Assembly (NCBI GenBank): GCA_023247895.1
Contig: JAHFFP010000001.1
Coordinates: forward strand, 1,029-65,028
Direction: 5' to 3'
Length of the DNA: 64,000 bases
From: Candidatus Omnitrophota bacterium
Lineage (GTDB): Bacteria; Omnitrophota; Gorgyraeia; Gygaellales; UBA12090
Under the pieces are notes generated by a model. That model was not told the origin of the DNA. It saw only the letters and a list, made by a program, of their open reading frames with translations, and did not search any database. The translations under genes and the position numbers were made by a program. Each line of letters starts with the position of its first letter. Position 1 is the stretch's first letter. Below, in pieces: positions 1 through 29,904 of this stretch.

Positions 1-180
1 CGAACCCTGCCTCGCCGGCAGGCGGGCCTACAACCCCTTGAGATACCGCTACTCATAAAAATCCATCGCAAGCGCAGTATGGGCTGGCTTATCGCCCTAG
101 GCGAACCCATCTTCAACAAACTTACAAAAACTGTCAAAATATCGCACGAATTAAAACCATTCTTTGACTACGTTATTTAA
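1..180 (+). repeat. Copy 1 (5'-truncated by window edge) of tandem repeated element encoding C-terminus of a small conserved protein (…RTLPRRQAGLQPLEIPLLIKIHRKRSMGWLIALGEPIFNKLTKT…FFDYVI*)
   Basis: Near-identical to 2850-3038 and 1419-1606. Open frame ends in ...DYVI-stop in all three copies. Differences between copies are mostly synonymous third-position changes. Confidence 0.6.
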
Positions 181-366
181 CTGAAAAAGCCTATTTCTTG
201 ATCAACGCTATAATCAATCCTATCACGCCCGAAGCGATAAAAAATATCCCGCCCAATCTAACTAAGGCCGCTTTATTACCCAGCTTCTCTTTTTTGTTTA
301 TTGACAGATATATCAAATAAATGCCCATACCCAAATAGAAAATTTTGTCAAAAAAAGCCCCTACAC

Positions 367-759
367 TCATGATACCCCCTTTTTAAATTGTTCTTTAATT
401 GACGGATTAAGAAAGAAAATAATAGCGCTTATTCCTATAATGAAACGCATTATGAATGCGATTAATACTGCTAAGCCAAGCCCTTGTTTTGAAAGGCTTG
501 CGATAGATGAAAGCGATGAAGAAAAAGTTAAGATACCCGCTAGAACAAGAAGCCCCATCAAGATTAAAAGAGTAATTCTTGCTACATTTTTCAGGCTCAA
601 TATTCCAATCCCGATTAAAACAAATAAAATTGGCAAGCCGACATAATCGACTCTCCAAATATTTCTTGCCGCATTAATTAATCCGTGACCAACCCCTAGT
701 GTTATTAATAAATATCCCCAAAAGGAAACGCCTCGAGATCTTATGTTTTCCATAAACAC
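367..759 (-). CDS. hypothetical integral membrane protein (4 predicted TM helices)
   Basis: 130-aa ORF, strongly hydrophobic segments; no recognisable motif. Confidence 0.5.
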   Translation of the reverse strand: MFMENIRSRGVSFWGYLLITLGVGHGLINAARNIWRVDYVGLPILFVLIGIGILSLKNVARITLLILMGLLVLAGILTFSSSLSSIASLSKQGLGLAVLIAFIMRFIIGISAIIFFLNPSIKEQFKKGVS

Positions 760-768
760 CCCTTTCGA

Positions 769-1371
769 TCATGGACTTACATGAATACCAATGGCAAAAA
801 GTATTAAAGTCAGCGAAACCTTGCCAACAAAAACCGTCTTATAATCCATTCTTTTTATAAACAGATTTTCCAACCAAGGACACCAAACTATTGCCAGAGA
901 AATAATAAGTGCAATATTAAACACCGTGTCTTTATGGATTAAGACTAAAATGGTTCCCCCTGCAAAAATCCAGAAAAACATCCACTTAAAAACAGAACCC
1001 ATTACCACCACGGAACGAACAACACCTTGGATGTCCAAATCCGGGAAAAATATATTTTTAATGATTGCTGTTATCTTCAGATTACTGATGTTCTCTGAAT
1101 AACTTTGCTCTATGGTTGATAGCCCTTTATTACCATTAATTCTCCCAATCCCTTCTGTTACTATCCAATAAATTAGAAAAATTCCGCCGATGGCCCCAAT
1201 CAATAAAGGAATGATATCCCCGACTTTTTCGCCGCTTTGAATAAGAACATAGGCAACAACAGACACCCCAATCACAACAAAAAATGCTAGAAATATCTTA
1301 AATGATTTGGAAAGTTTGAGTTCTGGCGGATTCTCCATTAGCACAACCTCCTCCCTAGGGTTCGCGTCCAC
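769..1371 (-). CDS. hypothetical integral membrane protein
   Basis: 200-aa ORF with multiple hydrophobic helices; 9-nt gap to downstream ORF (operon-like). Confidence 0.5.
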   Translation of the reverse strand: MDANPREEVVLMENPPELKLSKSFKIFLAFFVVIGVSVVAYVLIQSGEKVGDIIPLLIGAIGGIFLIYWIVTEGIGRINGNKGLSTIEQSYSENISNLKITAIIKNIFFPDLDIQGVVRSVVVMGSVFKWMFFWIFAGGTILVLIHKDTVFNIALIISLAIVWCPWLENLFIKRMDYKTVFVGKVSLTLILFAIGIHVSP

Positions 1372-1606
1372 AATTAGTGTGGCCGATTTTCCTTACCCTC
1401 CTCAACGGAGGGTTCACTTAAAAATCTGGCGGGTAGTCGTGGACGGTAGGCGAACCCTACAACCCCTTGAAATAGAGCTACTTATAAAAATTCATCGAAA
1501 ACGTAGCATGGGTTGGCTTATCGCTCTGGACGAACCCATCTTCAATAAACTTACGAAAACTAATAAACCAGCAGACTCAACACCTTACTATGACTATGTT
1601 ATTTGA
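1358..1606 (+). repeat. Copy 2 of tandem small-ORF element (inverted-repeat arms 'ggttcgcgtccac'/'gtcgtggacggtaggcgaacc' + conserved coding block lacking the 21-nt in-frame 'LPRRQAS' insertion)
   Basis: Sequence alignment to copies 1 and 3. Frame open from 1307 (ATG, overlaps the convergent gene). A GTG near 1393 is an alternative start. Ends ...PYYDYVI-stop. Confidence 0.55.
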
Positions 1607-1673
1607 AATCCGGCATTCTGTGAATTACACAGAGTTCTTACGTGAGGCTGTAAATAAAAAGCCAAGAAACCAT

Positions 1674-2582
1674 TCAGCCTCCCCATAAATGCAACTCCTT
1701 TAAGCGCTTAGCAAATAGATTAACTATTTGTATTGAACCCTCAAAATTATTCTCATTCAATAAATCAGCGTTCTTAGAATACTCAAAAGCAATACTAACC
1801 TTCTCTACTCCCCCCCCCCTTTTTCTTTTAGCAATGAAATTATGAGGGATATCATAACGCGTGATATTTTTTCCATAAACCTCTTTTGCGGCCATTTCTA
1901 CTTCTTTCGTAACTACCATGTCCGAATTTCTTTCAACACATGCCATGACGTTGATGCATATGAGATTTTCTAAACGGTTCTGAAAACCAAGAAAACTTTT
2001 CTGTAAATTTGTGTCAAAAAGATCGTGGTTAGTTGCTACCTGGTAAAAAATTGAAAACTGCTTATCAAAATCAGGATTTCCCGATGCTATTTCTTTTATT
2101 ATTAAGGGAAAGGTGACCTTCCTTGCTTCTTGAATCGGACGATTTTGATTCAGATTCATCATAAATATGACTTCTTCTTTCAAATTCATAGGAATCACTA
2201 CTTGACTGCTGGGCAAGTAATGGTCACCTCTGTCATACTCTTCTAAAGTTAATTTTACTTTATAATCTAGGCCATTCTCACAAAAGGTAAAAAGTTGGTT
2301 TTCGGAAATAATCGTATCCGGCTTTTTGCTCTTATGCCTGTTTAAATAATCTTCAGATTCGCTATCTGATACAGACTCATTCCTTGAAGGTAAAATTAAT
2401 ATGTAGCTAAACTCGATTTTCTCTGGCTCCGGAGTTACATTTCTCTTTTTAGCTTGTTCATTAATAAATTTATTCAAGATTTCTTTGTCTTTGTTTTTCT
2501 TAATATCCTTTTGCTGACCTTTCTTTCCAAACAAAAAGAAAACCAGCAGTATGAAACCTAAAAGTAAGAATATTAAATTCAT
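1674..2582 (-). CDS. hypothetical protein with N-terminal TM anchor
   Basis: 302-aa ORF, N-terminal hydrophobic helix then Lys-rich linker; no known motif recognised. Confidence 0.5.
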   Translation of the reverse strand: MNLIFLLLGFILLVFFLFGKKGQQKDIKKNKDKEILNKFINEQAKKRNVTPEPEKIEFSYILILPSRNESVSDSESEDYLNRHKSKKPDTIISENQLFTFCENGLDYKVKLTLEEYDRGDHYLPSSQVVIPMNLKEEVIFMMNLNQNRPIQEARKVTFPLIIKEIASGNPDFDKQFSIFYQVATNHDLFDTNLQKSFLGFQNRLENLICINVMACVERNSDMVVTKEVEMAAKEVYGKNITRYDIPHNFIAKRKRGGGVEKVSIAFEYSKNADLLNENNFEGSIQIVNLFAKRLKELHLWGG

Positions 2583-2666
2583 AACTCTACCCCCGTTGCT
2601 CCTTCACCCTAAAACTACGAATTAAATTCACAATTTCACTATGCCCATTTTTAATTGTCGCCCAAT

Positions 2667-3038
2667 GGTTCGCGTCCACGACAACACAAGCCTAAAACGC
2701 CACCTGTTTTCGACGGACGGTTCACTATAGTACTTTTAGAGCAATAGAACAATAGAGCATTAGACCGCAATGGAGCCTTTGCTTGACTATTGTTCTATTA
2801 TCTATTGCTCCATTGCTCTGTTTTTTTGCGAAGCAAAAAACGGATAGTCGTGGACGGTAGGCGAACCCTGCCTCGCCGGCAGGCGAGCCTACAACCTCTT
2901 GAAATACCGCTACTTATAAAAGTTCATCGCAAGCGCAGTATGGGCTGGCTTATCGCCCTAGGCGAACCCATTTTCAACAAACTTACAAAAACTGATAAAC
3001 CAAAGGCCGTAGTTCCCTACTATGACTACGTTATTTAA
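2667..3038 (+). repeat. Copy 3 of tandem small-ORF element: 16-bp inverted repeat ('ggttcgcgtccacgac' ... 'gtcgtggacggtaggcgaacc') enclosing a ~170-nt hairpin-rich insert, followed by conserved coding block
   Basis: Direct sequence comparison; internal complementary segments (agagcaatagaacaatag / ctattgttctatt..., ttttttgcgaagcaaaaaa). Confidence 0.6.
2790..3038 (+). CDS. small conserved protein of the repeated family (82 aa; C-terminal 60 aa shared with copies 1 and 2)
   Basis: ORF track, ATG at 2790. Compared with copy 2, 11 synonymous third-position changes versus ~4 non-synonymous. A 21-nt indel is in frame. Confidence 0.5.
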   Translation: MFYYLLLHCSVFLRSKKRIVVDGRRTLPRRQASLQPLEIPLLIKVHRKRSMGWLIALGEPIFNKLTKTDKPKAVVPYYDYVI

Positions 3039-3051
3039 CACGTGCTCAAAA

Positions 3052-4143
3052 TTATTCTTCCAATATAACCACAGGACTGTTACCAAAAGTTATTAAACCG
3101 ATGCGACGAGTATTTAAATCGAACAGAACAATCTGATTTCCAACTTGGCAGATAACCTGATCTTCTGGCAATACAGTCGCTTTACTAATTGGCCACATTA
3201 AGAAAGGAGTTTCAAGGGCAATATGTAAAGATTTGCCGGTTTTTTTATTTTCTCCGTTTAATCCTACTATAGCCCAACTTCCAGTATTCACGCTCCAATC
3301 ACGCACATTAGGAGACCTAAAGTCAATTACCTCATCGTTATGCCACCTATCACTTTCACCACAATCTTCACTAACTGCAGTTGCTCCTAAGAGATTTCCC
3401 AGCAAAATAATTGGCTTAGACCAACGACCATTTTCGGCCCAATAAGCGCCTAAATTCGCCTTCCCGTCTTTACTACAAGCAAAAAGCACCTCATACTTAT
3501 TAGTAAGCCTCGCCTCTTTGACCTTTTGTTTAGCAGTGCCGTTGACTCGAATTTTATATAATGCTCTATCTTCCGAAGATATGAAATAAACCCAAGCATT
3601 CCTAGTTTTTAAGAAAGAGAGCGATTTATCGACCTTGACATTAGTCATTAGGCTTGTACCGCTAACTAAAAAATAGATTGGAATCAAAATAGCATATGAC
3701 GCCGAATTGATCACCGCACTTGCCTTAAATGCGCGATTATGGCGATCTTCCTTGCCTTTTAGAATCCAGAAACAAAACGGCCACTCAATAAAAATTGTCG
3801 CTATGTAGGATCCTGCCAGCATCGCAAGGATAATCGCGAAAACATTATTGATTGAGGCAACATTATTGAGCGCGCCCCCCAATGACCATATTCCTACAAC
3901 ACCAGCAACCATTGATATGTAATTAGCCAGCACCATAATAAGAATACTTTTTACTGTTCGAGCACCAAATAGCTTTGCAACTATCAAACCTTCGAATATA
4001 CCAATAATCGCATTGCCTATAAGTAAATGGCCAGCACCTAACAACATCAAGGGGGTTCCTACATCTGCATATGCTGATTTTGGCATAAGAATGAAGAAAG
4101 AAAAAATAATTAACCAAAAATGCTTAAAATATTTTTTACACAT
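3052..4143 (-). CDS. hypothetical membrane protein (N-terminal polytopic domain + C-terminal soluble domain)
   Basis: 363-aa ORF, several TM helices in first 170 aa. Confidence 0.5.
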   Translation of the reverse strand: MCKKYFKHFWLIIFSFFILMPKSAYADVGTPLMLLGAGHLLIGNAIIGIFEGLIVAKLFGARTVKSILIMVLANYISMVAGVVGIWSLGGALNNVASINNVFAIILAMLAGSYIATIFIEWPFCFWILKGKEDRHNRAFKASAVINSASYAILIPIYFLVSGTSLMTNVKVDKSLSFLKTRNAWVYFISSEDRALYKIRVNGTAKQKVKEARLTNKYEVLFACSKDGKANLGAYWAENGRWSKPIILLGNLLGATAVSEDCGESDRWHNDEVIDFRSPNVRDWSVNTGSWAIVGLNGENKKTGKSLHIALETPFLMWPISKATVLPEDQVICQVGNQIVLFDLNTRRIGLITFGNSPVVILEE

Positions 4144-4271
4144 AAACCATCTCCTCTAAAAAAGTTCAAATCCCCTTCTGCTCAAGCCTAAAATTGCATA
4201 GGCTTTCGTCGGAAGAGTTCAACAATTCATCAATCCTGAAAGCATTTTGCTGATATCTTCAAGCGTTCTCT

Positions 4272-4562
4272 TCAGTAGTTCACTCTTCGTTGTATCGACC
4301 AGCCCTCTACGGGAACAAATCTCAAGTATCGAGACACACTCAAACGCTGAATACGAGAAATTCTAAAGAAATTTATTCTACCTGCCTTGGTATATCTGCC
4401 ATTGCCTTCAGCAATATTCGCCGATATTGATAATGACGCCCTATTCAGTTGATCCGCCAGAAAATAATTACCTTTAGGAAAATCCTTGGTTATCTCGCAG
4501 ATGTTATCTGCAAAATCCACGGATTTTCTATATACATCTAATTTTTCGAACAGGAATGACAT
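4272..4562 (-). CDS. four-helix-bundle protein (23S rRNA intervening-sequence protein family); C-terminus possibly degraded
   Basis: Motif L.VY+.....I...T+.FPK.E.Y.L..QL.RA..SI.ANIAEG.GR.....F characteristic of the family. The longer ORF 4272-4727 reads into a tRNA gene, so the start is placed at M56. Confidence 0.55.
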   Translation of the reverse strand: MSFLFEKLDVYRKSVDFADNICEITKDFPKGNYFLADQLNRASLSISANIAEGNGRYTKAGRINFFRISRIQRLSVSRYLRFVPVEGWSIQRRVNY

Positions 4563-4678
4563 AATTTTTGAAAATCGATAATCGAAATTTGACCGAATCG
4601 AAAACCTATTCTTATCTACTTTCGAATCTCGATTTTCGATTCTCTGCCATTTTTGCCTCAATTTAACGTAGGCAAAAA

Positions 4679-4768
4679 TGGCGGAGAGGCAGGGATTCGA
4701 ACCCTGGGTAGCCTTACGACTACACATGCTCTCCAGGCATGCCGATTAAACCACTCTCGCACCTCTCC
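4679..4768 (-). tRNA. tRNA-Ser (anticodon GGA), CCA encoded
   Basis: Manual fold: GGAGAGG acceptor, long variable arm, T-loop GGTTCGAATCC, anticodon loop CT-GGA-GA. Confidence 0.8.
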
Positions 4769-4864
4769 AGATATCTATTATTGCGGAGTTTCATTATACA
4801 GCCATATAAACAGATCGTCAACAATTGTTGCTATTCTCTTTATTTTAGGTTACAATATGCCGCT

Positions 4865-5848
4865 ATGTTAAAAATAGATACCTTAAAATTATCTTCCAAT
4901 CTGATCCTTTCTCCTATGGCGGGAATTACTGACCTGCCCTTTCGTACGCTCAACCACACATTCGGCTGTGAGCTTGCCTTTGTGGAGATGATTAATGCCC
5001 GCTCACTTGGCCACAAGAGCAAGAAGACGCAACACATGCTTTCTACTAACCTTAAGGATAAGCCCTTAGGATTGCAATTGTTAGGCTGTGAGCCGAAGTT
5101 TATTCAAAGGGCTATGGATATCTTGCAAGAATATGAATTTGACGTCTTAGATTTTAATGCCGCCTGCCCCGCAAAGAAGGTCACCCGCCGCGGCGAAGGC
5201 GCAAGCCTGCTTAAAGAGCCCAAAAAACTCAATCAACTCCTTAAACTCATAATCAAGAATTCCAAGGTGCCGGTAACGGCAAAGATACGCGCAGGCTGGG
5301 ATAAAGACTCGCTCAACGCCAAAGAAGCCGCGCTCTATGCCCAGGACGCAGGGATAAAGGCGCTATTTATTCACGGCAGGTCTAAGACTCAAGGCTACAG
5401 CGGCTCGGTAGATTATAAAATAATCAAATCGGTAAAAGACGCCCTTACCATACCGGTAATTGCAAGCGGGGATATTCTCTCGGCGCAACTGGCAAAAAGG
5501 ATGTTTGATGAAACCGGATGCGACGGCATTGCCGTTGCCAGAGGCGCGTTAGGGAATCCCTGGATATTCAGAGAAATTCAGGAATTTATTAAAAACGGCA
5601 AAATCATCCCTCGTCCAAGCCCGCAAGAGATAATGCGCACTATGCTCAAACATTTGGATTTGTGCATTGATTTCTACGGTGAAAAGGTGGGAGTGGTGAT
5701 ATTTCGCAAATTTATCGCCTGGTACACTAAGGGCTTCCGCAAAATCAGGCCTCTTCGGGAAAAGGCATCCCGCGTAAAAACTAAGGAAGAAATTCTCACA
5801 CTCAGCGAAGAATTTTTATCCGTAAACACCAGAGAAAAAGAAAACTAA
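4865..5848 (+). CDS. dusB: tRNA-dihydrouridine synthase
   Basis: LSPMAGITDLPFR, FVEMI, flavin/TIM-barrel Dus motifs; start set at MLKIDTLKL. Confidence 0.85.
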   Translation: MLKIDTLKLSSNLILSPMAGITDLPFRTLNHTFGCELAFVEMINARSLGHKSKKTQHMLSTNLKDKPLGLQLLGCEPKFIQRAMDILQEYEFDVLDFNAACPAKKVTRRGEGASLLKEPKKLNQLLKLIIKNSKVPVTAKIRAGWDKDSLNAKEAALYAQDAGIKALFIHGRSKTQGYSGSVDYKIIKSVKDALTIPVIASGDILSAQLAKRMFDETGCDGIAVARGALGNPWIFREIQEFIKNGKIIPRPSPQEIMRTMLKHLDLCIDFYGEKVGVVIFRKFIAWYTKGFRKIRPLREKASRVKTKEEILTLSEEFLSVNTREKEN

Positions 5849-5972
5849 AAAAACAGAAAAATTTTATGGCGTTACCCTTGCAAGAAACAAGCCATATGTG
5901 GTATACTTTAGTTACTTCCTCGCGTACAAAATTGCTTCGGGCACAAATGGGGTTTTTGAAATAACCAAACCC

Positions 5973-6036
5973 AAGGGGGCGCGAAAGTCCCGAATCAATG
6001 AGAGAGGATGAAGACGTAAATACGCCCCCTTTTTTA
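5973..6036. terminator. GC stem (aagggggcg...cgccccctt) followed by T6; candidate bidirectional terminator between convergent dusB and HD-GYP gene
   Basis: 9-bp GC-rich stem with long loop then tttttt. Confidence 0.4.
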
Positions 6037-8641: not shown

Positions 8642-9118
8642 CTAGAATTTAAAATTCCCCTGCGGGCTGTCTCTCTTCATGATTTCTTTGATAAGATTAA
8701 CGAATTTTGTTGCCGTATCCAAGGCTCCCCCTGCTTCTGTGCATGAAATTGAAATATCAATCTCATAAGTGAAGATATTGCGCTTCCTGCGCATCCTGTC
8801 AAAACGTTCTGCTATGCTCTTATATTCTTCTCCTAGGCATTGCGCCATAAAATCTACCACAGTCTTATGTTGATAGCCATCTGCCGGGCGAAATCCCTTA
8901 AGCAGCATAAAGGCGCGTCCTGCGCGTAACATAGCCAGATACGCTACAGTATAGGCAATTCCTTCATCAATCTTAAGATTTGCCTTTGCTGTTTTTAAAT
9001 CCTTCTCGCTTCTGAAAATTAACTTCTCTACTGTGCCAAAGTCAGATTTCTGTTTCTTAAGCAGGCCTTTTGCTAAATATTCTTCTATAAACTTTTCATA
9101 TCTCATTTTTATCTCCAA
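8642..9118 (-). CDS. HEPN-domain protein (putative toxin of HEPN/MNT pair)
   Basis: All-helical 158-aa protein overlapping the upstream MNT gene by 23 nt; typical HepT/MntA gene arrangement. Confidence 0.55.
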   Translation of the reverse strand: MEIKMRYEKFIEEYLAKGLLKKQKSDFGTVEKLIFRSEKDLKTAKANLKIDEGIAYTVAYLAMLRAGRAFMLLKGFRPADGYQHKTVVDFMAQCLGEEYKSIAERFDRMRRKRNIFTYEIDISISCTEAGGALDTATKFVNLIKEIMKRDSPQGNFKF

Positions 9119-9668
9119 TCAAGAATATTTTCGGATTTCTTATAAGATCTAGGATAAAGGAATCTTTTCTGGCTTTTTTCTTCTTAAATTCTTCTCTTGT
9201 GTATAAAGTATAATTAATCTCTCTTCTAAATCCTTCTTCAGCTTTCTTTACTTCTCTAATTAGTTGATCTTCATTGACATTGCCCATAATGAAGAGGTCA
9301 ATATCGCTTGCGGCATTCTCGCTTTTTTGGGCAAATGACCCATAGATAAAAGCCAGCTCAATCCCCTTAATTTTAGCCAGAGACTGCTTCAATGCCCCTT
9401 CTACGCCAACAGTCTTAAATACTATACTTTTTAACTCGCTGAATAATGGGTACGATTTATTGAGAGAATAATAAGTTCTATTTCCGTTTTTTCGGGATAA
9501 AAATATGCCTTCCTGCTCCAGTCGGACAAGTTCTTTGCGAATCATACTCACGGGAGTATCAATAAGGCGCTCCAATTCCCTCAGATAATATTCTCCGTGC
9601 GGGTTAGTAAAATAGAGCTTAAAAAGCTCTTTTCGTGTTTTAGATTTAAATATGTTTGAAATATCCAT
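9096..9668 (-). CDS. nucleotidyltransferase (MNT-type, Pol-beta superfamily) with N-terminal winged-helix domain
   Basis: GSFAQK...DIDLFIMG (GS...DxD minimal NTase motif); N-terminal wHTH-like segment. Confidence 0.7.
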   Translation of the reverse strand: MDISNIFKSKTRKELFKLYFTNPHGEYYLRELERLIDTPVSMIRKELVRLEQEGIFLSRKNGNRTYYSLNKSYPLFSELKSIVFKTVGVEGALKQSLAKIKGIELAFIYGSFAQKSENAASDIDLFIMGNVNEDQLIREVKKAEEGFRREINYTLYTREEFKKKKARKDSFILDLIRNPKIFLIGDKNEI

Positions 9669-9819
9669 ATTGTAACCTTTCTCTATTACTATTGTAATAT
9701 ATTTAGATTACAATATCAAGAGAATACTCAATAATGAATAGGACCATCTCCATTCTTATCCATAAAGTTAAATTCAACATTCAAGGTCTGACCCTGTTGT
9801 TTTTGACTGGCGGACGCGG

Positions 9820-10035
9820 TTGCAACCAATTCGCACCGTATCGGAAATCCAAGCAAAGATTATAATTCAACCTTTCCAACGCATACCATTATATCAAAAA
9901 TTATCTAAAAAGGTAACAGAATTGCGGCTTTTGGGTATGCTTCATAAGGAAATAGCTAAAAGTTTAAACATTTCTAAAAGAACAGTTACGAAGGCTTGTA
10001 AATTTCAGGAAAAGATTCAAGGAAGCGAAAAATGA
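9820..10035 (+). CDS. small HTH protein, paralog of 7549-7758
   Basis: LRLLGMLHKEIAKSLNISKRTVTKA. Confidence 0.55.
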   Translation: MQPIRTVSEIQAKIIIQPFQRIPLYQKLSKKVTELRLLGMLHKEIAKSLNISKRTVTKACKFQEKIQGSEK

Positions 10036-10235
10036 GCTGGCCATTTAGTATTCGTAATATTATATATCCTAAAGAAAAATACATCTGGGCGCAGGTTAAG
10101 ATTATACATGAAACAGACAAAGCTATACTGGTAGATAACGGCAGAAAAACTTGGATTCCTAAGTCTCGAATACATGGAATAAGATTACGACATAATATCT
10201 TTGAAATTTACACTAAAGAAAGTACAATAGGATAA
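10032..10235 (+). CDS. small conserved protein of unknown function (partner of HTH gene), overlaps it by 4 nt
   Basis: 67-aa ORF; paralog at 7761-7964. Confidence 0.45.
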   Translation: MSWPFSIRNIIYPKEKYIWAQVKIIHETDKAILVDNGRKTWIPKSRIHGIRLRHNIFEIYTKESTIG

Positions 10236-10365
10236 CACCTAAGGCTTCCCTGGCTAATAGAGGCATTACATTATGCTATAGCCTATAGAACAAGTAAAAA
10301 TAATATAACTATATGTATTGAAATGAGTTACGATTTACTTGCTTTACCGCAAAACAAGTAACCCA

Positions 10366-11814
10366 TCATTTCTTAACCTCTGGAGAATCGGGCAGCTTGT
10401 ATTTAGTTCCCTTAAAATAACCAGAGGGTGGCACGATCTGTATTAACAAACCCTGCTTGGCCCAATTTTTTAACATTTTTGCCATCTTATCGCGCTGGAC
10501 AACACCAGTAACTTCTCTAGCTTTCTCATTTGTAATATATTTATTTTCCTTTAAGTAACTGCTGATCTTTTCCCATTCTGAAGGCCGATATTCATTAAGT
10601 AAAATAACCTTAACGAAATCTTGATATAATGGATAGGTAAGAAATATAGGTGGGTATAAATTCTGAGCGGCCATTTCACTCCTCATGGCCCGAACGCCTT
10701 CGTTCTGATCAAGATTAGGTGGTGACGGAAACTCTCGTAAATGTTTGACTAGTAAATCATTTCTATATCCTTCGGCGCGCACCCATCCAATATTAGCTCT
10801 CGTGATGTTACAGGGGAATAATCCGGGGCTATCTACTTCAACCCTATCTTCGTAAATCTTAACTTCGATATCCCTCTTCATGTGGTAATCTCTGTGAATC
10901 ACCGCATTCGTAATAGCCTCCTTAATCGCCCGTTCTGGAATTTGATATATCGTTTTAAAGCCAGATGGAATGCGAATACCTGATCGCAAAAGCGTCAATA
11001 CATATTCATGAGCATCTTTGATCTGTTTAATAAGCGGGCCTTGTATAGTTTTTGGTACGCCAATAAGATTTGGGGTCTCTCCAATATTCTCGATAGTGCC
11101 GGTGTATTGAAAAACCCTGATAGCGCATTTAGTTTCAGTAAGCTCATTGGGGTATTCTGCAAATAATAAAACTGCTGCTAATGTAGGAAGAAGCTTACCT
11201 TGCTCATTCTTTCGCGCTAATCCAGTTTTTTCCAAAATTGTTTCAATAGGACTGCCGTTAATTCGCCTCGCCTCTTTCCATTCTTCAAAATAGGGTGTCT
11301 TTAATAAGGTAAAATCGATACCCACAAGCCCTTTATCAGCCCTTTCGAACCCTTTTGCATAGGCAAACTTTACCATCTCGTGAGCTGTTAAGTGACGGTT
11401 CCCCTTTACGCCTCGCACATAGACATTATTATTGACCGAATGAAAACTATCTATAGCCTTAGGTACAAATATTAAAGCGACTCTCTTCTGGCCATCAGGC
11501 GCATCGAGAAGAGTAGGCGGCCATAGACCAGGTATTGGTGGAATAATTCTTTGAATTTCCCGCCCTAGAGCATCATACGTTTGAACATTTTCATCAATTC
11601 CATAAATGCGATTAAGACCCTTTAGTTTTGTTTTCTCCGGGTCATCAATGCCCAAAATGATCACACCACCATCTGTATTCGTCATAGCCACAATGGTTTC
11701 TATAACCTTAGTAACAACTTTATCCTCGGACAAACGCTTAAATTCAATCGTTTGGGTTTCAGCAGGTATCTCGAGAATATTCTTTAACCAATCATTTTGA
11801 TTTTCTTTTTTCAT
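10366..11814 (-). CDS. AlbA_2 (Schlafen-like divergent AAA) + HATPase_c_4 domain protein, putative ATP-dependent DNA-binding/defence-associated regulator
   Basis: N-terminal TIEFKRLSEDKV...AMTNTDGGVIILGIDD (AlbA_2) and C-terminal ITNAVIHRDYHMKRDIEVKIYEDRVEVDSPGLFP (HATPase_c_4). Confidence 0.65.
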   Translation of the reverse strand: MKKENQNDWLKNILEIPAETQTIEFKRLSEDKVVTKVIETIVAMTNTDGGVIILGIDDPEKTKLKGLNRIYGIDENVQTYDALGREIQRIIPPIPGLWPPTLLDAPDGQKRVALIFVPKAIDSFHSVNNNVYVRGVKGNRHLTAHEMVKFAYAKGFERADKGLVGIDFTLLKTPYFEEWKEARRINGSPIETILEKTGLARKNEQGKLLPTLAAVLLFAEYPNELTETKCAIRVFQYTGTIENIGETPNLIGVPKTIQGPLIKQIKDAHEYVLTLLRSGIRIPSGFKTIYQIPERAIKEAITNAVIHRDYHMKRDIEVKIYEDRVEVDSPGLFPCNITRANIGWVRAEGYRNDLLVKHLREFPSPPNLDQNEGVRAMRSEMAAQNLYPPIFLTYPLYQDFVKVILLNEYRPSEWEKISSYLKENKYITNEKAREVTGVVQRDKMAKMLKNWAKQGLLIQIVPPSGYFKGTKYKLPDSPEVKK

Positions 11815-11949
11815 ACTAAACCCTCCGAATTTTTAATAGCTTTACTTCGTTTGGATTTATTTTACGAGTCGATAGATTATAGCGACTTACGTAAAGCGTC
11901 TTAAATTTTCTTTAATTTTGCATCTTTGGATCGTTCTATGGAAAACAAC

Positions 11950-12972
11950 TTATACATCTCCATTACCAATTCTTCTCCTTAATAGTTCTGATAGCAGCGA
12001 AGGAAATGTTGTTTGAGGCGGAGCAGGAGACATTAACAATGAAGAAAATGGGGATGGTAATGTCGGGGGTGTATAAAACCCGCTGCCCAATATTCTACCC
12101 CATACCTGCTTGGCAAAACCAATCTGTCCTTTCTGCATATAATCAAATGCTTTTTGAGCATAAGCAAAGTGCGCTTTGATTTTCTGCTTAACCGCTGCTA
12201 ATAAAAAAGGATTGGCATAGAGATATTGGTCTACATAAACACTATTCCCGCCTGGCTCTGGAACAAATGGACTGTTTTTGTAAAGGTCAAGCAGGTAATT
12301 CGTTTTTGCGAAAAACGCCCCAACACCACCCGCATAATCTTCAATCTTATAGGCACTAAACGCCATCCTTGCCAACATTTCTAAATGGAATGACCGTAGA
12401 GGGACTTTATGCACATCTTTCCATCGCTTTAACATCTATACTGTTGGCTTAAACAATCCCCCTGCCTGCTTATTCTCCTGCGTCATCCATTTGTGGGGGA
12501 TTTTGGGATATGTTTGTTGCCATCCCAAACCACTAACCGCTGGTATCTTGAAAAGTTCCTCATTATCACTGAAACCAATCGCAGGAACGACTTCAAAATG
12601 ACAATATGAAAACTTAACAGTTATACACGGTTGAGTTATGATAACTGGCGTTAAAGGATAAGCGCTTCTCAAGACACGGCTAATCTTATTGAGCAATTGC
12701 ATAGGGGTATCGTTTTTGTGCTGCCCATAATGAACCTGAACAATAAAATCTACGTCCTTCAAAGGTCTTATCATTGTATCTCGTGCGTAAGAACCCGTCA
12801 GGAATGTACCCACTATCTTCACATCTGTGGAGTTTTCAAGCATAGTCCTCATCTTTGTATGACTTGCTGAAATAGAACTTTTTTCATTTTCGTTTGGTTC
12901 TATCTTTGAGCGTAATTTTTCAAATTCCTCAAGAATACTTTGTTTCGCCCTCTCGTAAGGTAGTAAAGTCAT
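11950..12972 (-). CDS. SMODS/CD-NTase-like nucleotidyltransferase (~340 aa) interrupted by an in-frame TAG at 12436-12438; annotated by the ORF track as two ORFs (178 aa + 161 aa)
   Basis: N-part: GSYARDTMIRPLKDVDFIV (GS...DxD), FEVVPA third acidic site. C-part begins LKRWKDV...LRSFHLEMLA, matching the helical-domain motif that follows the NTase core in the cGAS/DncV-like family. The two ORFs are in the same frame with only the stop between them. Confidence 0.55.
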
Positions 12973-13508
12973 ACTTGTTTATCCTTTTCAGAATACACTT
13001 CTTCGCCATCCTTAACGCCATCTCGTGCCTTTTGGTAATCTCCCTGTGAAGTCTCTGGCTCATCTTTCTGAATATCATTTACCTCTTGGCAAATCTTCTC
13101 AAGTTCTTTCTGAACTTCATCTAATGTTTTATTGCCATCTTTGTAGTAAGCAAGTAACCTCTGCGCTTCCTTCATCAAACATAGGTATCTATCTGCTGTA
13201 ACTTTATGTCTTAATGCTTGTTTTTCAAACTTCAAGTAAGTCTGCAAAGCCACAAGGATTGCATTAAGTAATATAAAAATCCCGACAATAATTTGCGCTA
13301 ATAGTATATCGCTCTTAGACAGAGCGAAGTAAACCGAAGTTCCCATAATGGCGGTCAAAACCACTATTGCTATCCCCATATTTCTATTGTAAGTAGCAAC
13401 CCTATCTCTTGCGTTGTAATGCTTCTTCTTCCCATACATACAGTCAATTCTAAATTTATTTAATTCTTCAATGGTATTTATACCTTTTTCCATTTTACTC
13501 CTTATCAA
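12969..13508 (-). CDS. SLATT-like 2-TM effector (SMODS- and SLOG-associating 2TM domain)
   Basis: 179 aa: ~50-aa N-region, two hydrophobic helices, helical C-terminus. ATGA overlap with the NTase gene. SMODS+SLATT is a described two-gene conflict system. Confidence 0.5.
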   Translation of the reverse strand: MIRSKMEKGINTIEELNKFRIDCMYGKKKHYNARDRVATYNRNMGIAIVVLTAIMGTSVYFALSKSDILLAQIIVGIFILLNAILVALQTYLKFEKQALRHKVTADRYLCLMKEAQRLLAYYKDGNKTLDEVQKELEKICQEVNDIQKDEPETSQGDYQKARDGVKDGEEVYSEKDKQV

Positions 13509-13693
13509 GTGGCGTAAAATTGCCGCATGAGAGACTCTGCTTCTTTTTGGGGATCCACTTCAACCTTAGACTTTTGCTGTTCCGAATCTAAGACAATTCC
13601 ACCTTTTCCTATAGCTTTAATTCTTGGGAATAACCCTATTATTTGTTTGCGAAATATAACAAAGAAGGCTATAAAAATTAAAACCACCGCCAT
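13505..13693 (-). CDS. small single-TM peptide, translationally coupled (ATGA overlap) to SLATT gene
   Basis: 62 aa, N-terminal hydrophobic helix. Confidence 0.4.
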   Translation of the reverse strand: MAVVLIFIAFFVIFRKQIIGLFPRIKAIGKGGIVLDSEQQKSKVEVDPQKEAESLMRQFYAT

Positions 13694-13747
13694 GGCACTA
13701 TGTATATATACCCCCCCTCTTAGTAAAATAGAAACAACAGCTGTCTC

Positions 13748-14716
13748 CTATTTCCTGCTCGAACACCAATCTATTTGCTTAAAGTCATCAAAAAGTCTGT
13801 TATACAGTTTTCTGTTTATTGGCTTAATATGACTTATTTTTCCCAAAATACGCTCTCTGAATTTTAACAAGCTAAAATCTGGCTTTTTATCAAAGTTAAA
13901 TTCTTCGTTAAATCTATCAATCTGAGTTCGAGGGCCAAGAGTTATGCAGTTATTAATGATCGCTTTTAAATTATGACGATAGGCATAAGGCACATTAGGC
14001 TTTTCATTAACACCAATCCCAGTGACTTCTTGTTTTTGCCAATAATACTGTTCCTTAATTTTACTTTCATTCACAATAAAACCTTCTTGCTTAAAAACTT
14101 TGCAAATAAGCTTCTTAAGGGTTTTAATCCCCATATTCCCAGATATTGTTATATCATCAGAAAAAAATGTGTAAGTATAACTTAATCCTATTTTCATAAA
14201 TAACGTTTTTAGGCGTTTGTCCAGGTTTCTCAGCATCAAAACTGCTAGGATCGGACTAGCTGAAAACCCATGCGGCAGACAGTAATCAGCTGTGGTTAAT
14301 CTTGATAAAATCTTTGACTCCTGCTCATCAAAACCAAGATTTTTAAACAACGCAAATACTTTCTTGAAATGCACACTCGGGAAGAAATCTTTGATGTCTA
14401 ATTTTGTAATGACCCTCTTGCTGAGATGACAGAGAGCATTTGTTAAATTAGACCTTTTCTTCTTATATCCGTGGAAAGTCTCAGGGAGTGAAGTTTTTTT
14501 AGAAATATAGGCTAGGATTGTTCGCTGGAGTTCCTTAAGATCTTTGGAGGTAGAAAAAATAAGGCGCTTTTTGCCGTTTTTATCAATTTCTTCTCGCTTG
14601 CGATAATGATTCCTAAAATGCGATACAATATTGCAAAGCTTCTCTTCACTATAACCTATTTTATAAGAAAGAGAGTAGTAAACTGAACCTGCTGATGAAT
14701 TTATTTTGCCATCCAT
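13748..14716 (-). CDS. reverse transcriptase, retron/Abi-like (RT domain only), with FSDD in place of canonical YADD
   Basis: KKRLIFSTSKDLKELQRTIL (motif 1), LDIKDFFPSV (motif 2), LPHGFSASPILAVLMLRNLD (QG..SP-type motif 4), YTYTFFSDDITISG (motif C). Confidence 0.8.
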   Translation of the reverse strand: MDGKINSSAGSVYYSLSYKIGYSEEKLCNIVSHFRNHYRKREEIDKNGKKRLIFSTSKDLKELQRTILAYISKKTSLPETFHGYKKKRSNLTNALCHLSKRVITKLDIKDFFPSVHFKKVFALFKNLGFDEQESKILSRLTTADYCLPHGFSASPILAVLMLRNLDKRLKTLFMKIGLSYTYTFFSDDITISGNMGIKTLKKLICKVFKQEGFIVNESKIKEQYYWQKQEVTGIGVNEKPNVPYAYRHNLKAIINNCITLGPRTQIDRFNEEFNFDKKPDFSLLKFRERILGKISHIKPINRKLYNRLFDDFKQIDWCSSRK

Positions 14717-15077
14717 TAGTAATGATAGCCATATTGAACAAATCTATAGAAAAGTCACGCCGTGACTGCATCATACATTGGGAAATAAAGGACCTTACGA
14801 TTTTAGTAATTGCCTCAACAATCGTGCTTAGAGCCTGTAATGTCGTAGCAAACAAAGCAAATGCCTTAACTGCCGTGCTTGCTTTATCCCTATCACGAAT
14901 TTTGGTAACTGCTATTCTCTTGGCGTCCTCGATCTCCCCAAAATTAAGAGAATTTCTTCTCTTTTTTTGTTTCGATCTACTCATTTGACCACCCCCTTTC
15001 TTCTTTGACTTGTTCACTCTTAAATTTTGGGATATATTTCCCCAATGAAAGATAAGCATATATTTATTGCTTATCAT
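14661..15077 (-). CDS. uncertain ORF upstream of and overlapping RT start (basic N-terminus); may instead be non-coding RNA region
   Basis: ORF track only; overlaps RT by 56 nt. Confidence 0.2.
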   Translation of the reverse strand: MISNKYMLIFHWGNISQNLRVNKSKKKGGGQMSRSKQKKRRNSLNFGEIEDAKRIAVTKIRDRDKASTAVKAFALFATTLQALSTIVEAITKIVRSFISQCMMQSRRDFSIDLFNMAIITNGWQNKFISRFSLLLSFL

Positions 15078-29814: not shown

Positions 29815-29904
29815 TGGCGGAGAGGGTGAGATTTGAACTCACGGTGGAGTTGCCCCCACAACAGTTTTCAAGACTGCCGCTTTCAACCACTCAGCCACCT
29901 CTCC
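29815..29904 (-). tRNA. tRNA-Ser (anticodon TGA), CCA encoded
   Basis: GGAGAGG acceptor, long variable arm, GGTTCAAATCTCACC T-arm, anticodon loop CT-TGA-AA. Confidence 0.8.

Follow-up and report, generated by a model that had tools for sequence, protein, structure and literature searches.

The window analyzed here, a stretch of 64,000 nucleotides from a Candidatus Omnitrophota bacterium, opens with copies of a short repeat, X, that alternate with other genes, and the question it raises is what X is and how such an array arose. The initial annotation counted three copies, which we located at 1-180, 1430-1606 and 2841-3038, with pairwise identities of 72 to 93%. It also held that the intervening cargo ORFs are unrelated to one another, and this is so. 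None could be assigned to a family, and every one is encoded on the minus strand. The features of the array, in window coordinates, are as follows.

1-180, plus strand: X1, distal cassette-end element truncated by the window start (nhmmer match 15-180); contains the final 59 codons of the small ORF, including a 21-nt in-frame insertion, with its TAA stop at 178-180
191-1339, minus strand: cargo of the outermost visible cassette; three ORFs of 59 aa (191-370), 130 aa (367-759) and about 189 aa (769-1339; GGAGGAGG ahead of its ATG), predicted membrane proteins, no family match
1355-1429, no strand assigned: leader F, type A1, of the outermost visible cassette, a module that elsewhere stands directly behind tRNA-Ser; distal arm TAGGGTTCGCGTCCAC at 1356-1371, hairpin CCCTCC/GGAGGG at 1395-1413, GGTTCAC at 1411-1417, an A-rich run, and a terminal TGG at 1427-1429 (CCA on the tRNA strand)
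1430-1606, plus strand: X2, complete cassette-end element; crossover triplet CGG at 1430-1432, putative cis-element at about 1430-1505; ORF of 55 aa from GTG at 1439 to the TGA stop at 1604-1606
1674-2582, minus strand: cargo of the middle cassette, a 302-aa protein, no family match
2663-2840, no strand assigned: leader F, type A2, of the middle cassette; arm GGTTCGCGTCCACGAC at 2667-2682, GGTTCAC at 2719-2725, inserted CAATAG-repeat element at about 2733-2820, hairpin TTTTTTTGCGAAGCAAAAAA at 2821-2840
2841-3038, plus strand: X3, complete cassette-end element; CGG at 2841-2843; ORF of 62 aa from GTG at 2850 to the TAA stop at 3036-3038, with a 21-nt in-frame hairpin insertion at about 2870-2890
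3052-4143, minus strand: cargo of the next cassette, a 363-aa membrane protein, no family match
4163-4223, no strand assigned: leader F, type B, GTTCAAATCCCCTTCTGCTCAAGCC...GGAAGAGTTCAAC, by comparison with other type B leaders
4272-4562, minus strand: cargo of the tRNA-nearest unit, a decayed, frameshifted "23S rRNA intervening sequence protein" gene (four-helix bundle)
4679-4768, minus strand: tRNA-Ser(GGA), the array anchor; its 3' end, ...CUCUCCG-CCA, is the insertion point
4793-4821, minus strand: sigma-70-like promoter match (TTGACG, 17-nt spacer, TATAAT; 11 of 12 positions), a consensus match only

We found X in 133 loci, nearly all from Omnitrophota (a first set of 53 loci with 75 X copies, plus 80 additional metagenome loci). 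It is 120 to 200 nt long, conserved in sequence and present in one to four copies per locus, never in mixed orientation within any one of the 133, and the genes next to it are all on the opposite strand. Followed in the tRNA's own direction (along the minus strand in the window), the layout runs tRNA-Ser, leader F, one to three cargo genes, X, F, cargo, X and so on, with a cargo-plus-leader spacer of 376 to 2,689 nt from each X to the next X or tRNA. Because this architecture recurs in about 130 independent contigs from many studies, the misassembly that the initial annotation had entertained is excluded.

Constraints on the repeat X

All three window copies are open in one plus-strand frame and stop at the same aligned codon, which bears out the proposal of a plus-strand coding sequence with a shared stop position. 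The 21-nt indel is in frame, as had been claimed, and three independent insertions at one codon (21, 33 and 66 nt) each keep the frame. About 11 synonymous against about 4 amino-acid changes had been read between copies 2 and 3; the direction was right, but both counts were too low, as we found 15 synonymous differences at 40 synonymous sites and 12 non-synonymous differences at 128 sites, the latter amounting to 8 amino-acid differences. Furthermore, the summed entropy by codon position across 25 independent long-form copies from other genomes was 21.3, 19.3 and 38.3, and codons 25 to 62 of the X ORF gave a dS of 0.84 and a dN/dS of 0.19. These results indicate that the coding signature is real and that the purifying selection originally claimed for it holds. 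The start codon is GTG or ATG in 22 of the 25 long forms, and recently moved cassettes carry a "short-form" X in which a usable start codon is absent. The encoded protein is small, basic and helical, with the 55-aa form modeled by AlphaFold as a single helix (pLDDT, 55); it is probably an accessory DNA-binding or stabilizing factor and not a catalyst.

Over codons 0 to 24, the first ~75 nt of X, dS was 0.157, compared with 0.84 in codons 25 to 62, and four-fold sites (CGN, GGN and CTN), nearly free distally, were invariant in CGA-ACC-CTA-CAA...CTA-CTT-ATA. Because this stretch is frozen at its synonymous sites, it points to a cis-acting site. By its pattern of substitution, X is doubly constrained, combining a putative cis-acting stretch of about 60 to 100 nt at the junction end with a 55-aa ORF under purifying selection, the latter on the strand opposite to the cargo.

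A coding repeat with a conserved stop might be where a host protein gene ends, the gene being a target for integration; each element would bring a replacement 3' end, and the intact gene would lie upstream, to the left of the window. Tandem accretion at gene 3' ends has precedents in SCCmec at rlmH and in ICE/CIME elements at fda or rpsI. For X, this explanation, which the initial annotation had offered, is scarcely credible. A word-indexed search of 5.8 billion sequences returned proteins of 55 to 105 aa and none longer, and an exhaustive HMM search of 1.84 billion representatives returned 49 relatives of 32 to 240 aa, with the match always C-terminal, and no parent gene. Moreover, every X copy, including the outermost ones and the single ones in long contigs, begins at the boundary CGGGTAG, and the sequence upstream is unrelated and often runs into an in-frame stop only a few codons away. 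At their opposite end, the arrays have a tRNA-Ser gene as the conserved partner; the actual target is the 3' end of this tRNA, on the other strand, and no parent gene left of the window is needed.

Discrete cassettes joined at tRNA-Ser 3' ends

X typically lies 0.4 to 2.7 kb downstream of a tRNA-Ser gene, whatever the anticodon. The first tRNA downstream was a tRNA-Ser (gct, gga, cga or tga) on the opposite strand in most genome loci and a tRNA-Ser in 23 of the 27 judgeable metagenome loci, and the F module found before X also abuts tRNA-Ser 3' ends directly. Exceptions were one array that abuts a tRNA-Asp also ending in CCCCG-CCA (L013) and three loci that abut a 17-nt tRNA-Ser 3' remnant (L008, L004 and L038); at several arrays there was no tRNA within 6 kb. 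The window's own tRNA-proximal junction is degraded: in the type B leader at 4163-4223, the junction end has been lost and with it the expected CTAAAAAC-TGG-CGG, and the unit with the decayed gene at 4272-4562 (PF05635, E value = 1.8 × 10−18) is missing its own X. At two other loci (L054 and L113), a PF05635-type gene and its upstream repeat stand directly behind tRNA-Ser, and the first of these also has X. The promoter match at 4793-4821 is the strongest promoter-like site in window positions 1-5000; it lies just upstream of tRNA-Ser and is directed into the array.

We determined the cassette edges from a 1,686-nt beta-lactamase cassette (short X, SnoaL gene, class A beta-lactamase gene and F type B) that is 98 to 100% identical in eight contexts, abutting a different tRNA-Ser gene in each of five and another X in three. 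At its left edge, identity begins at /CGGGTAG (slashes mark edges) and all left flanks are unrelated; its right edge reads ...AAAAAATTGG/CGG/, after which comes one of five different tRNA-Ser genes or another X. The edges /CGGGTAG and TGG/CGG therefore place the crossover within CGG. Cassettes are discrete units with exact edges, they are joined to a tRNA or a resident X within this triplet (CCG on the tRNA strand, C71-C72-G73, directly before CCA), and one cassette is found behind different tRNA-Ser isoacceptor genes and within arrays. Three further pairs of loci (L015/L019, L014/L104 and L005/L027) have cassettes in common between first and internal positions or between different isoacceptors. 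Conservation does not extend to F, the tRNA-proximal end, where many cassettes have unrelated sequence. The cargo across loci is accessory and diverse, including SAM methyltransferases, beta-lactamases, DNA methylases, EcoRI methylase, GmrSD, and TPR and ankyrin proteins. Exact edges and shared cassettes support the earlier suggestion of a cassette array built by serial site-specific insertion; the suggested polymorphic family of small proteins and partners is not supported, since X is partnered by unrelated enzymes and one and the same cassette travels as a single unit.

If X were instead a small resident gene, or a module with a regulatory or terminator role, that had been duplicated, homologous recombination could have shuffled the DNA in between. 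The 72 to 93% identity among the window copies would suffice for occasional homologous exchange, and some arrays look locally duplicated, such as one (L026) whose two X copies share a 125-nt upstream flank. We consider such a non-mobile origin very unlikely, since it leaves unexplained both the exact start of identity at CGG beside eight unrelated left flanks, with its exact stop at the tRNA 3' end, and the link to tRNA-Ser genes of four isoacceptor types, which have little in common apart from the 3' end.

Possible routes of movement

The 16-bp inverted repeat reported before each complete copy is real, with a left arm, GGTTCGCGTCCAC, at 1359-1371 and 2667-2679 and a flanking arm, GTCGTGGACGGTAGGCGAACC, that occurs exactly twice (0 expected by chance); the extended left arm, GGTTCGCGTCCACGAC, is present in copy 3 only. 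The pairing in copy 2 consists of TAGGGTTCGC plus GTCCAC against GTGGAC, a GGTAG bulge and then GCGAACCCTA. The enclosed lengths are 67 nt (copy 2) and 164 nt (copy 3), and the insert, for which a mobile hairpin within a gene had been one suggestion, is the leader F of the neighboring cassette. The junction of copy 2, taken as single-stranded DNA, has a folding energy of −24 to −25 kcal/mol (z about −4). Systematic co-variation between the arms of one cassette's own F-X hairpin was not found, nor was a conserved fold of X on either strand.

The fold and the junction-near hairpins in F types A and B would suit single-strand transposition of non-autonomous elements by an HUH/Y1, IS200/IS605-like enzyme, which would insert 3' of ..CCG (tRNA strand) without duplication; as the right end of the element is also ..CCCG, new copies could land behind resident ones. 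Target-site duplication is indeed absent beyond the shared CGG, insertion is strictly oriented, and the element end CTACCCG resembles the target CTCTCCG. We judge this route unlikely, however, because IS200/IS605 elements require hairpins at both ends, whereas the F end is unconserved and X has no conserved fold; in addition, no tnpA-like gene was seen near any array. Alternatively, a processed transcript CCA-F-cargo-X might be reverse-transcribed and re-inserted, its edges coinciding with sites of tRNA 3' processing, one behind discriminator G73 of tRNA-Ser and one behind ..CCCG of X. The edge of the cassette is exactly at the boundary of G73 and CCA, X ends tRNA-like in ..ACCCG-CCA on the tRNA strand, the cargo is co-oriented with the tRNA, and a retron-type reverse transcriptase lies in the window, 10 kb off. 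This enzyme is nevertheless located among defense genes, and reverse transcriptases are not associated with arrays at other loci. Neither ARAGORN nor Rfam identifies X as tRNA-like, X lacks a conserved acceptor/T-arm fold, and we regard an RNA-mediated route as highly improbable.

The likely explanation is that these are integron-like cassettes, mobilized in trans and inserted serially at the tRNA-Ser 3' end, and that the window opens inside such an array. A cassette would excise as a circle in which X is joined to its own F, and re-insertion would proceed by conservative site-specific recombination of the X site with a tRNA-Ser 3' end or with another X. We found no circular cassette contigs. 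The recombinase would be encoded elsewhere in the genome. A tyrosine recombinase motif scan of the 133 loci gave one match, 7 kb from an array (L003), and of the 25 Pfam families that 146 neighboring proteins matched most often, none was a recombinase or transposase family. Judged by motifs and families, no recombinase is linked to the arrays across the 133 loci. Read-through from the tRNA promoter would probably drive at least some transcription of the cargo genes, all of which are co-oriented with the tRNA.

Relation to known mobile systems

We found no prior description of this cassette system in the available literature. IMEX elements and pdif modules borrow the host recombinase XerC/XerD. 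Like these, the cassettes are small recombinase-less cargo modules with conserved bounding sites and, as proposed here, an enzyme encoded elsewhere. Unlike them, they have no recognized dif-like 11-6-11 site, they target a tRNA 3' end, and each module has one long asymmetric site as opposed to two short inverted ones.

Integrative elements, integrase-less derivatives included, are known to accumulate in tandem at tRNA or tmRNA genes, as with CIMEs, tycheposon remnants (bioRxiv 10.1101/2020.12.28.424599) and the ssrA islands of Dehalococcoides (PMC3146451). The present arrays share with these serial insertion at a tRNA 3' end with outward displacement of older units, integrase-less units presumably mobilized in trans, and the seeding of a variable genomic island. 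The known elements are bounded by partial tRNA copies (attachment sites of about 20 to 40 nt) and have integrase-bearing parents of 5 to 100 kb, whereas here the shared sequence is CGG (plus CCA) only, the repeated X is no partial tRNA, the units hold one to three genes, and no such parent was seen.

Integrons differ in their IntI gene, found neither adjacent to the arrays nor anywhere in the 133 loci, and in their dedicated attI site, as against insertion at tRNA-Ser, with several such genes per genome. X is conserved in sequence, has no GTTRRRY core or conserved hairpin and encodes a conserved 55-aa protein, whereas attC sites are the opposite, variable in sequence and conserved in structure. 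In both systems, however, the arrays are made up of short cassettes (here 376 to 2,689 nt between successive sites). A cassette holds from one to a few accessory genes in a common orientation and a single distal recombination element, which lies almost wholly to one side of a 3-nt crossover (G/TT in integrons, CGG here). Both have one cassette at first and internal positions, a promoter at the insertion end of the array (here a consensus match), and beta-lactamases, methyltransferases and defense genes as cargo. Moreover, the proposed recombination of X with tRNA-Ser and of X with X would follow the logic of attC × attI and attC × attC.

The array behind tRNA-Ser(GGA) in the window

The repeat at the start of the window is a conserved cassette-end element with a small ORF (X), present in three copies (X1 to X3) of 170 to 200 nt. 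As the initial annotation had claimed, a single plus-strand frame is open throughout all three and reaches a stop codon at the same aligned position. Between the copies lie minus-strand ORFs of 59, 130, about 189, 302, and 363 amino acids (aa), which are mutually unrelated and matched no family in Pfam, PHROGs, or NCBIfam. The sequence GGTTCGCGTCCAC precedes copies 2 and 3 and is complementary to GTGGAC...GCGAACC within the block. What had been taken for a left arm plus an insert is the leader of a cassette (F), its tRNA-side end; the hairpin-rich insert of about 170 nt described before copy 3 is present and consists of a type A2 leader plus a repeat element.

Features of the window array, by position and then by unit
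1-180, plus strand: repeat copy 1 (X1), truncated by the window edge
1430-1606, plus strand: repeat copy 2 (X2)
2841-3038, plus strand: repeat copy 3 (X3)
Right of X3: truncated leader F(B)
4272-4727 as called, real gene about 4272-4562, minus strand: decayed four-helix-bundle gene ("23S rRNA IVS protein," PF05635)
4679-4768, minus strand: tRNA-Ser(GGA)
Unit 1, nearest the tRNA: four-helix-bundle gene; X and the junction of the next leader lost
Unit 2: F(B), 363-aa gene, X3
Unit 3: hairpin, CAATAG-repeat element, F(A2), 302-aa gene, X2
Unit 4: F(A1), three small membrane-protein genes, X1

At least four units are stacked behind tRNA-Ser(GGA), and the array continues past the left window edge. 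The PF05635 gene is frameshifted near its 3' end, and its long ORF call overruns into the tRNA gene; the absence from this unit of the expected X, together with the adjoining junction end of the next leader, suggests a deletion. The top promoter-like site of the region, a consensus match only, lies upstream of tRNA-Ser and is directed into the array. Two more tRNA-Ser genes in the window, CGA and TGA, lie at 22987-23076 and 29815-29904, both with CCA encoded; no X or F was found behind either, and each may be a vacant insertion site in this genome.

Elsewhere in the window, a cluster of defense-type genes occupies 8645-15077 on the minus strand.

Genes of the defense-type cluster
8645-9668, minus strand: HEPN and nucleotidyltransferase pair
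10369-11814, minus strand: Schlafen/AlbA_2 protein
12439-13508, minus strand: SMODS and SLATT_4 effector
13751-14716, minus strand: retron-type reverse transcriptase, 322 aa, with an overlapping 138-aa ORF

The best NCBIfam matches of the 322-aa reverse transcriptase were retron reverse transcriptase families, every one below its cut-off.

The small gene within X

Codon comparison bore out the proposal that the block is protein coding. Copies 2 and 3 differed at 15 of 40 synonymous sites and at 12 of 128 nonsynonymous sites, and across 25 independent long-form copies (X with the full small ORF) the summed entropy per codon position was 21.3, 19.3, and 38.3. The predicted start was GTG or ATG in 22 of these 25, and codons 25 to 62 gave a dN/dS of 0.19 (dS, 0.84). 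The first 24 codons had a dS of only 0.157, with fourfold degenerate positions invariant in CGA-ACC-CTA-CAA...CTA-CTT-ATA, which together indicate a second, nucleotide-level constraint overlapping the 5' end of the ORF. Many X copies are short forms, in which the first ~120 nt are kept and the C terminus has diverged, and some of these have no possible start codon (e.g., L047; L numbers denote loci with X in other genomes or metagenomes). The 55-aa protein is selected in the long forms and dispensable for recent movement. Three independent in-frame insertions occur at one codon, with lengths of 21 nt in the window (~7-27 and ~2870-2890), 33 nt in L017 (~485-517), and 66 nt in P0001, another independent copy; all are GC rich and hairpin forming. 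Many arrays at other loci have a similar GC-rich palindrome, e.g., GGCGAGATCTCGCC, in their flanks, which may point to a family of small palindromic repeats in these genomes.

The initial annotation had also offered X as a replacement 3' end of a target protein gene. A word-indexed search returned 14 relatives of 55 to 105 aa, and an exhaustive HMM search of 1.84 billion representatives returned 49 proteins of 32 to 240 aa, the match always being C-terminal. Since only small proteins emerged as relatives, and no full-length gene with the same C terminus, there is no parent gene, and that explanation was abandoned. A remnant of an integrase N terminus was likewise dropped, as no longer homologue was found in the 1.84 billion representatives. 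The small protein had no match in Pfam, NCBIfam, or PHROGs, and its AlphaFold model (pLDDT of 55, a single helix) was too poor for a fold search; the protein is predicted, with poor confidence, to form one basic helix followed by a Pro/Tyr-rich tail. With low confidence, we suggest that it acts as an accessory factor in site binding, directionality, or maintenance.

A structured RNA was also considered for X and dropped, although the 21-nt indel resembles an optional hairpin. RNAalifold on 52 X copies gave −2.0 kcal/mol for the minus strand and −4.9 kcal/mol for the plus strand with essentially no covariation, and so no consensus fold for X on either strand. Rfam returned nothing at the repeats, either for the whole window at the gathering threshold or for positions 1-5000 at E values of up to 10, and ARAGORN found no tRNA or tmRNA there. 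A tRNA-like or tmRNA-like RNA gene was rejected on the lack of a model match and of a conserved acceptor/T-arm fold, and a permuted tmRNA gene was considered and dropped.

Discrete cassettes with exact edges at tRNA-Ser

With one genome scanned per species, X turned up at 50 loci, and a metagenome scan found at least 80 more. Most of the genome loci are labeled Omnitrophota, and some are labeled Planctomycetes, Aminicenantes, Zixibacteria, or Saccharibacteria (labels as recorded). X occurs in one to four copies per locus, never in mixed orientation (nhmmer), and the neighboring genes sit on the opposite strand. The first downstream tRNA on the opposite strand is tRNA-Ser (gct, gga, cga, or tga) in most genome loci and in 23 of 27 judgeable metagenome loci, and at least four metagenome-assembled genomes (MAGs) carry arrays on two contigs. 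Maps of 13 loci gave the same unit order in the tRNA direction (tRNA-Ser, F, cargo, X, F, cargo, X, and so on), with 376 to 2,689 nt from one X to the next X or to the tRNA. Integration of the dusA type was dropped, the Dus gene (4739-5848) and the array being on opposite sides of the tRNA.

Some arrays depart from this anchor. In L013 (8590-8685), a cassette leader adjoins tRNA-Asp(GTC), whose 3' end likewise reads ..CCCCG-CCA, which suggests that the requirement is a ..CCG-CCA end rather than serine identity. A 17-nt remnant of the tRNA-Ser 3' end adjoins several arrays (L004, L008, and L038); these remnants mark other events, most simply the insertion of another element between array and tRNA. 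L023 adjoins a degraded tRNA-like 3' fragment. As a separate observation, L003 (= L016; 2078-3381 and 4352-10214) has three tRNA-Ser genes clustered beside those for seryl-tRNA synthetase, RtcB, and archease, and also beside a tyrosine recombinase gene, which no other array was seen to have nearby.

The edges of the cassettes were fixed by a unit of 1,686 nt that is 98 to 100% identical in L044 to L050 and L079, across MAGs and metagenomes from different studies. It contains a short X, a SnoaL gene, a class A beta-lactamase gene (PF13354; E value, 7e-43), and a type B leader; variants without the SnoaL gene were also found.

Occurrences of the beta-lactamase cassette
4312-5997: L044
5995-7680: L047 to L050
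Also present: L045, L046, L079
Variants: L071, L072, L125

At the left edge, identity starts exactly at CGGGTAG and the eight left flanks are unrelated; at the right edge, it stops at ...AAAAAATTGG-CGG, and the neighbor is one of five different tRNA-Ser genes (L047 to L050 and L079) or another X (L044 to L046). The junction partners share CGG only, or TGGCGG where CCA is encoded, which places the crossover at C71-C72-G73 of the tRNA strand, just before CCA. Other cassettes are tRNA adjacent in one genome and array internal in another (L019 versus L015, L014 versus L104), and one lies next to different isoacceptors (L005, gct, versus L027, tga). The cassettes are therefore discrete units that have moved. 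They are strictly oriented, and their edges fall exactly in CGG, whether the partner is a tRNA-Ser 3' end or a further X; the one conserved site of each cassette lies nearly entirely to one side of the crossover.

The leader is less uniform than X. Modules of the types below also adjoin the CCA end of tRNA-Ser genes directly, and many cassettes have other sequence than a known F at their tRNA-side end, so that the universal part is X only.

Types of leader F
Type A1: GGTTCGCGTCCAC-AATTAGTGTGGAC...CCCTCC-loop-GGAGGG-TTCAC-(C/T)TAAAAAC
Type A2: ...GTCCACGACAAC...
Type B: GTTCGAATCCCCTTCT...GGGTTCACC...

As single-stranded DNA, the F(A)-X junction folds strongly (z about −4), which leaves room for a folded-strand substrate there as in integron attC sites. 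This reading is weakened by the many cassettes that lack the inverted repeat across the junction and by a neutral arm test, in which a cassette's F arm matched its own X arm better in three cases, the neighboring X arm better in five, and both equally in six; there was one clear compensatory case (L015). Beside the leader of unit 3, at window positions 2733-2820, lies an element of ~90 nt with CAATAG-like octamer repeats in an inverted arrangement, flanked by a short A/T-stem hairpin. It also occurs in L046 (~1000-1087), L086, L054, L113, and L022, recurring right behind tRNA-Ser or X and often immediately upstream of a PF05635 four-helix-bundle gene; candidate roles are a promoter module and a very small mobile element.

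Cargo, mechanism, and comparison with known systems

We surveyed 71 cassette ORFs and 146 neighboring ORFs. Cargo types included SAM methyltransferases, class A beta-lactamases, TPR/ankyrin proteins, DNA methylases, EcoRI methylase, GmrSD, and SnoaL. No cassette examined carried a gene for the enzyme, and recombinase and transposase families were absent among the 25 most frequent Pfam families of the 146 neighboring proteins. A scan for tyrosine-recombinase motifs in all ORFs of the 133 loci and the window gave one match only, in L003 at 7 kb from the array, and tblastn with this integrase found no linked recombinase; the proximity of the L003 gene may be a coincidence or a lead to the enzyme. 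We found no circular cassette contigs and no match in viral contigs.

We infer a cycle in which X would be joined to its own F in a circular intermediate, and the circle would then recombine with the tRNA-Ser 3' end or a resident X by conservative site-specific recombination, catalyzed by a recombinase encoded elsewhere. Cargo expression would be aided by the tRNA promoter.

Integrons are the textbook dedicated gene-capture system, and to our knowledge few independent analogues exist. The arrays resemble integrons in their co-oriented cassettes, each ending in a site, and in the presence of the same cassette in different positions. However, an integron has intI, a tyrosine recombinase gene, beside the array, whereas no such gene adjoins the arrays in the 133 loci and the window. 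Integron attC sites are imperfect palindromes of 57 to 141 nt that carry R''/L''-L'/R' boxes and a GTTRRRY core and keep their structure while their sequence varies; X, in contrast, is conserved in sequence, lacks a consensus fold (−2 and −5 kcal/mol), and has CGG as its crossover triplet. CIME-like units share with the cassettes a site at a tRNA 3' end and the lack of a recombinase gene within the unit, but they are bordered by direct repeats, partial copies (about 15 to 60 nt) of the 3' end of the target tRNA, and X and tRNA-Ser share just CGG or TGGCGG. Elements of the IS200/IS605 type have conserved subterminal hairpins at both ends and a Y1 transposase in the genome, whereas the cassettes are variable at the tRNA-proximal end (F types A1, A2, B, and others) and X has no conserved hairpin. 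MITEs and classical insertion sequences have terminal inverted repeats and a target-site duplication; the cassette ends here are unrelated, and nothing is duplicated apart from the shared CGG. The system does not pass the tests that define integrons, CIME-like accretion, IS200/IS605 derivatives, or MITEs; functionally, its nearest counterparts are the integron and integrase-less accretion at tRNA genes. It was undescribed in the literature covered on Omnitrophota, tRNA-Ser, and cassettes, a coverage that is incomplete, with most subscription journals outside it.

By analogy, we view the system as integron logic built from different parts. We regard it as possible, with more doubt than conviction, that Omnitrophota have a second, independently evolved integron-analogous gene-capture platform, in which any tRNA-Ser serves as insertion site (C71-C72-G73) and promoter, a single element of ~120 to 200 nt is both recombination site and gene for a 55-aa factor, and a recombinase unlinked to the array moves the cassettes. 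That recombinase may come from a family that has had no earlier link to cassette capture, and there is a substantial chance that the system will stand as an independent gene-capture system once the enzyme is known. The search problem is defined: a recombinase that recognizes X and the tRNA-Ser end.

A recombination site overlapping a conserved small gene is unusual by itself. The locus shows this integron-like logic in a poorly known, largely uncultured phylum, with short single-site cassettes in ordered arrays. The cargo includes beta-lactamases and genes for restriction-modification and other defenses, and a near-identical cassette occurs across different genomes and insertion genes; with the beta-lactamase cassette, an uncultured phylum has an environmental beta-lactamase carried on a mobile unit. 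The X motif beside tRNA-Ser offers a sequence handle to mine cassettes from metagenomes, and the system would explain the exchange of accessory genes among small Omnitrophota genomes.
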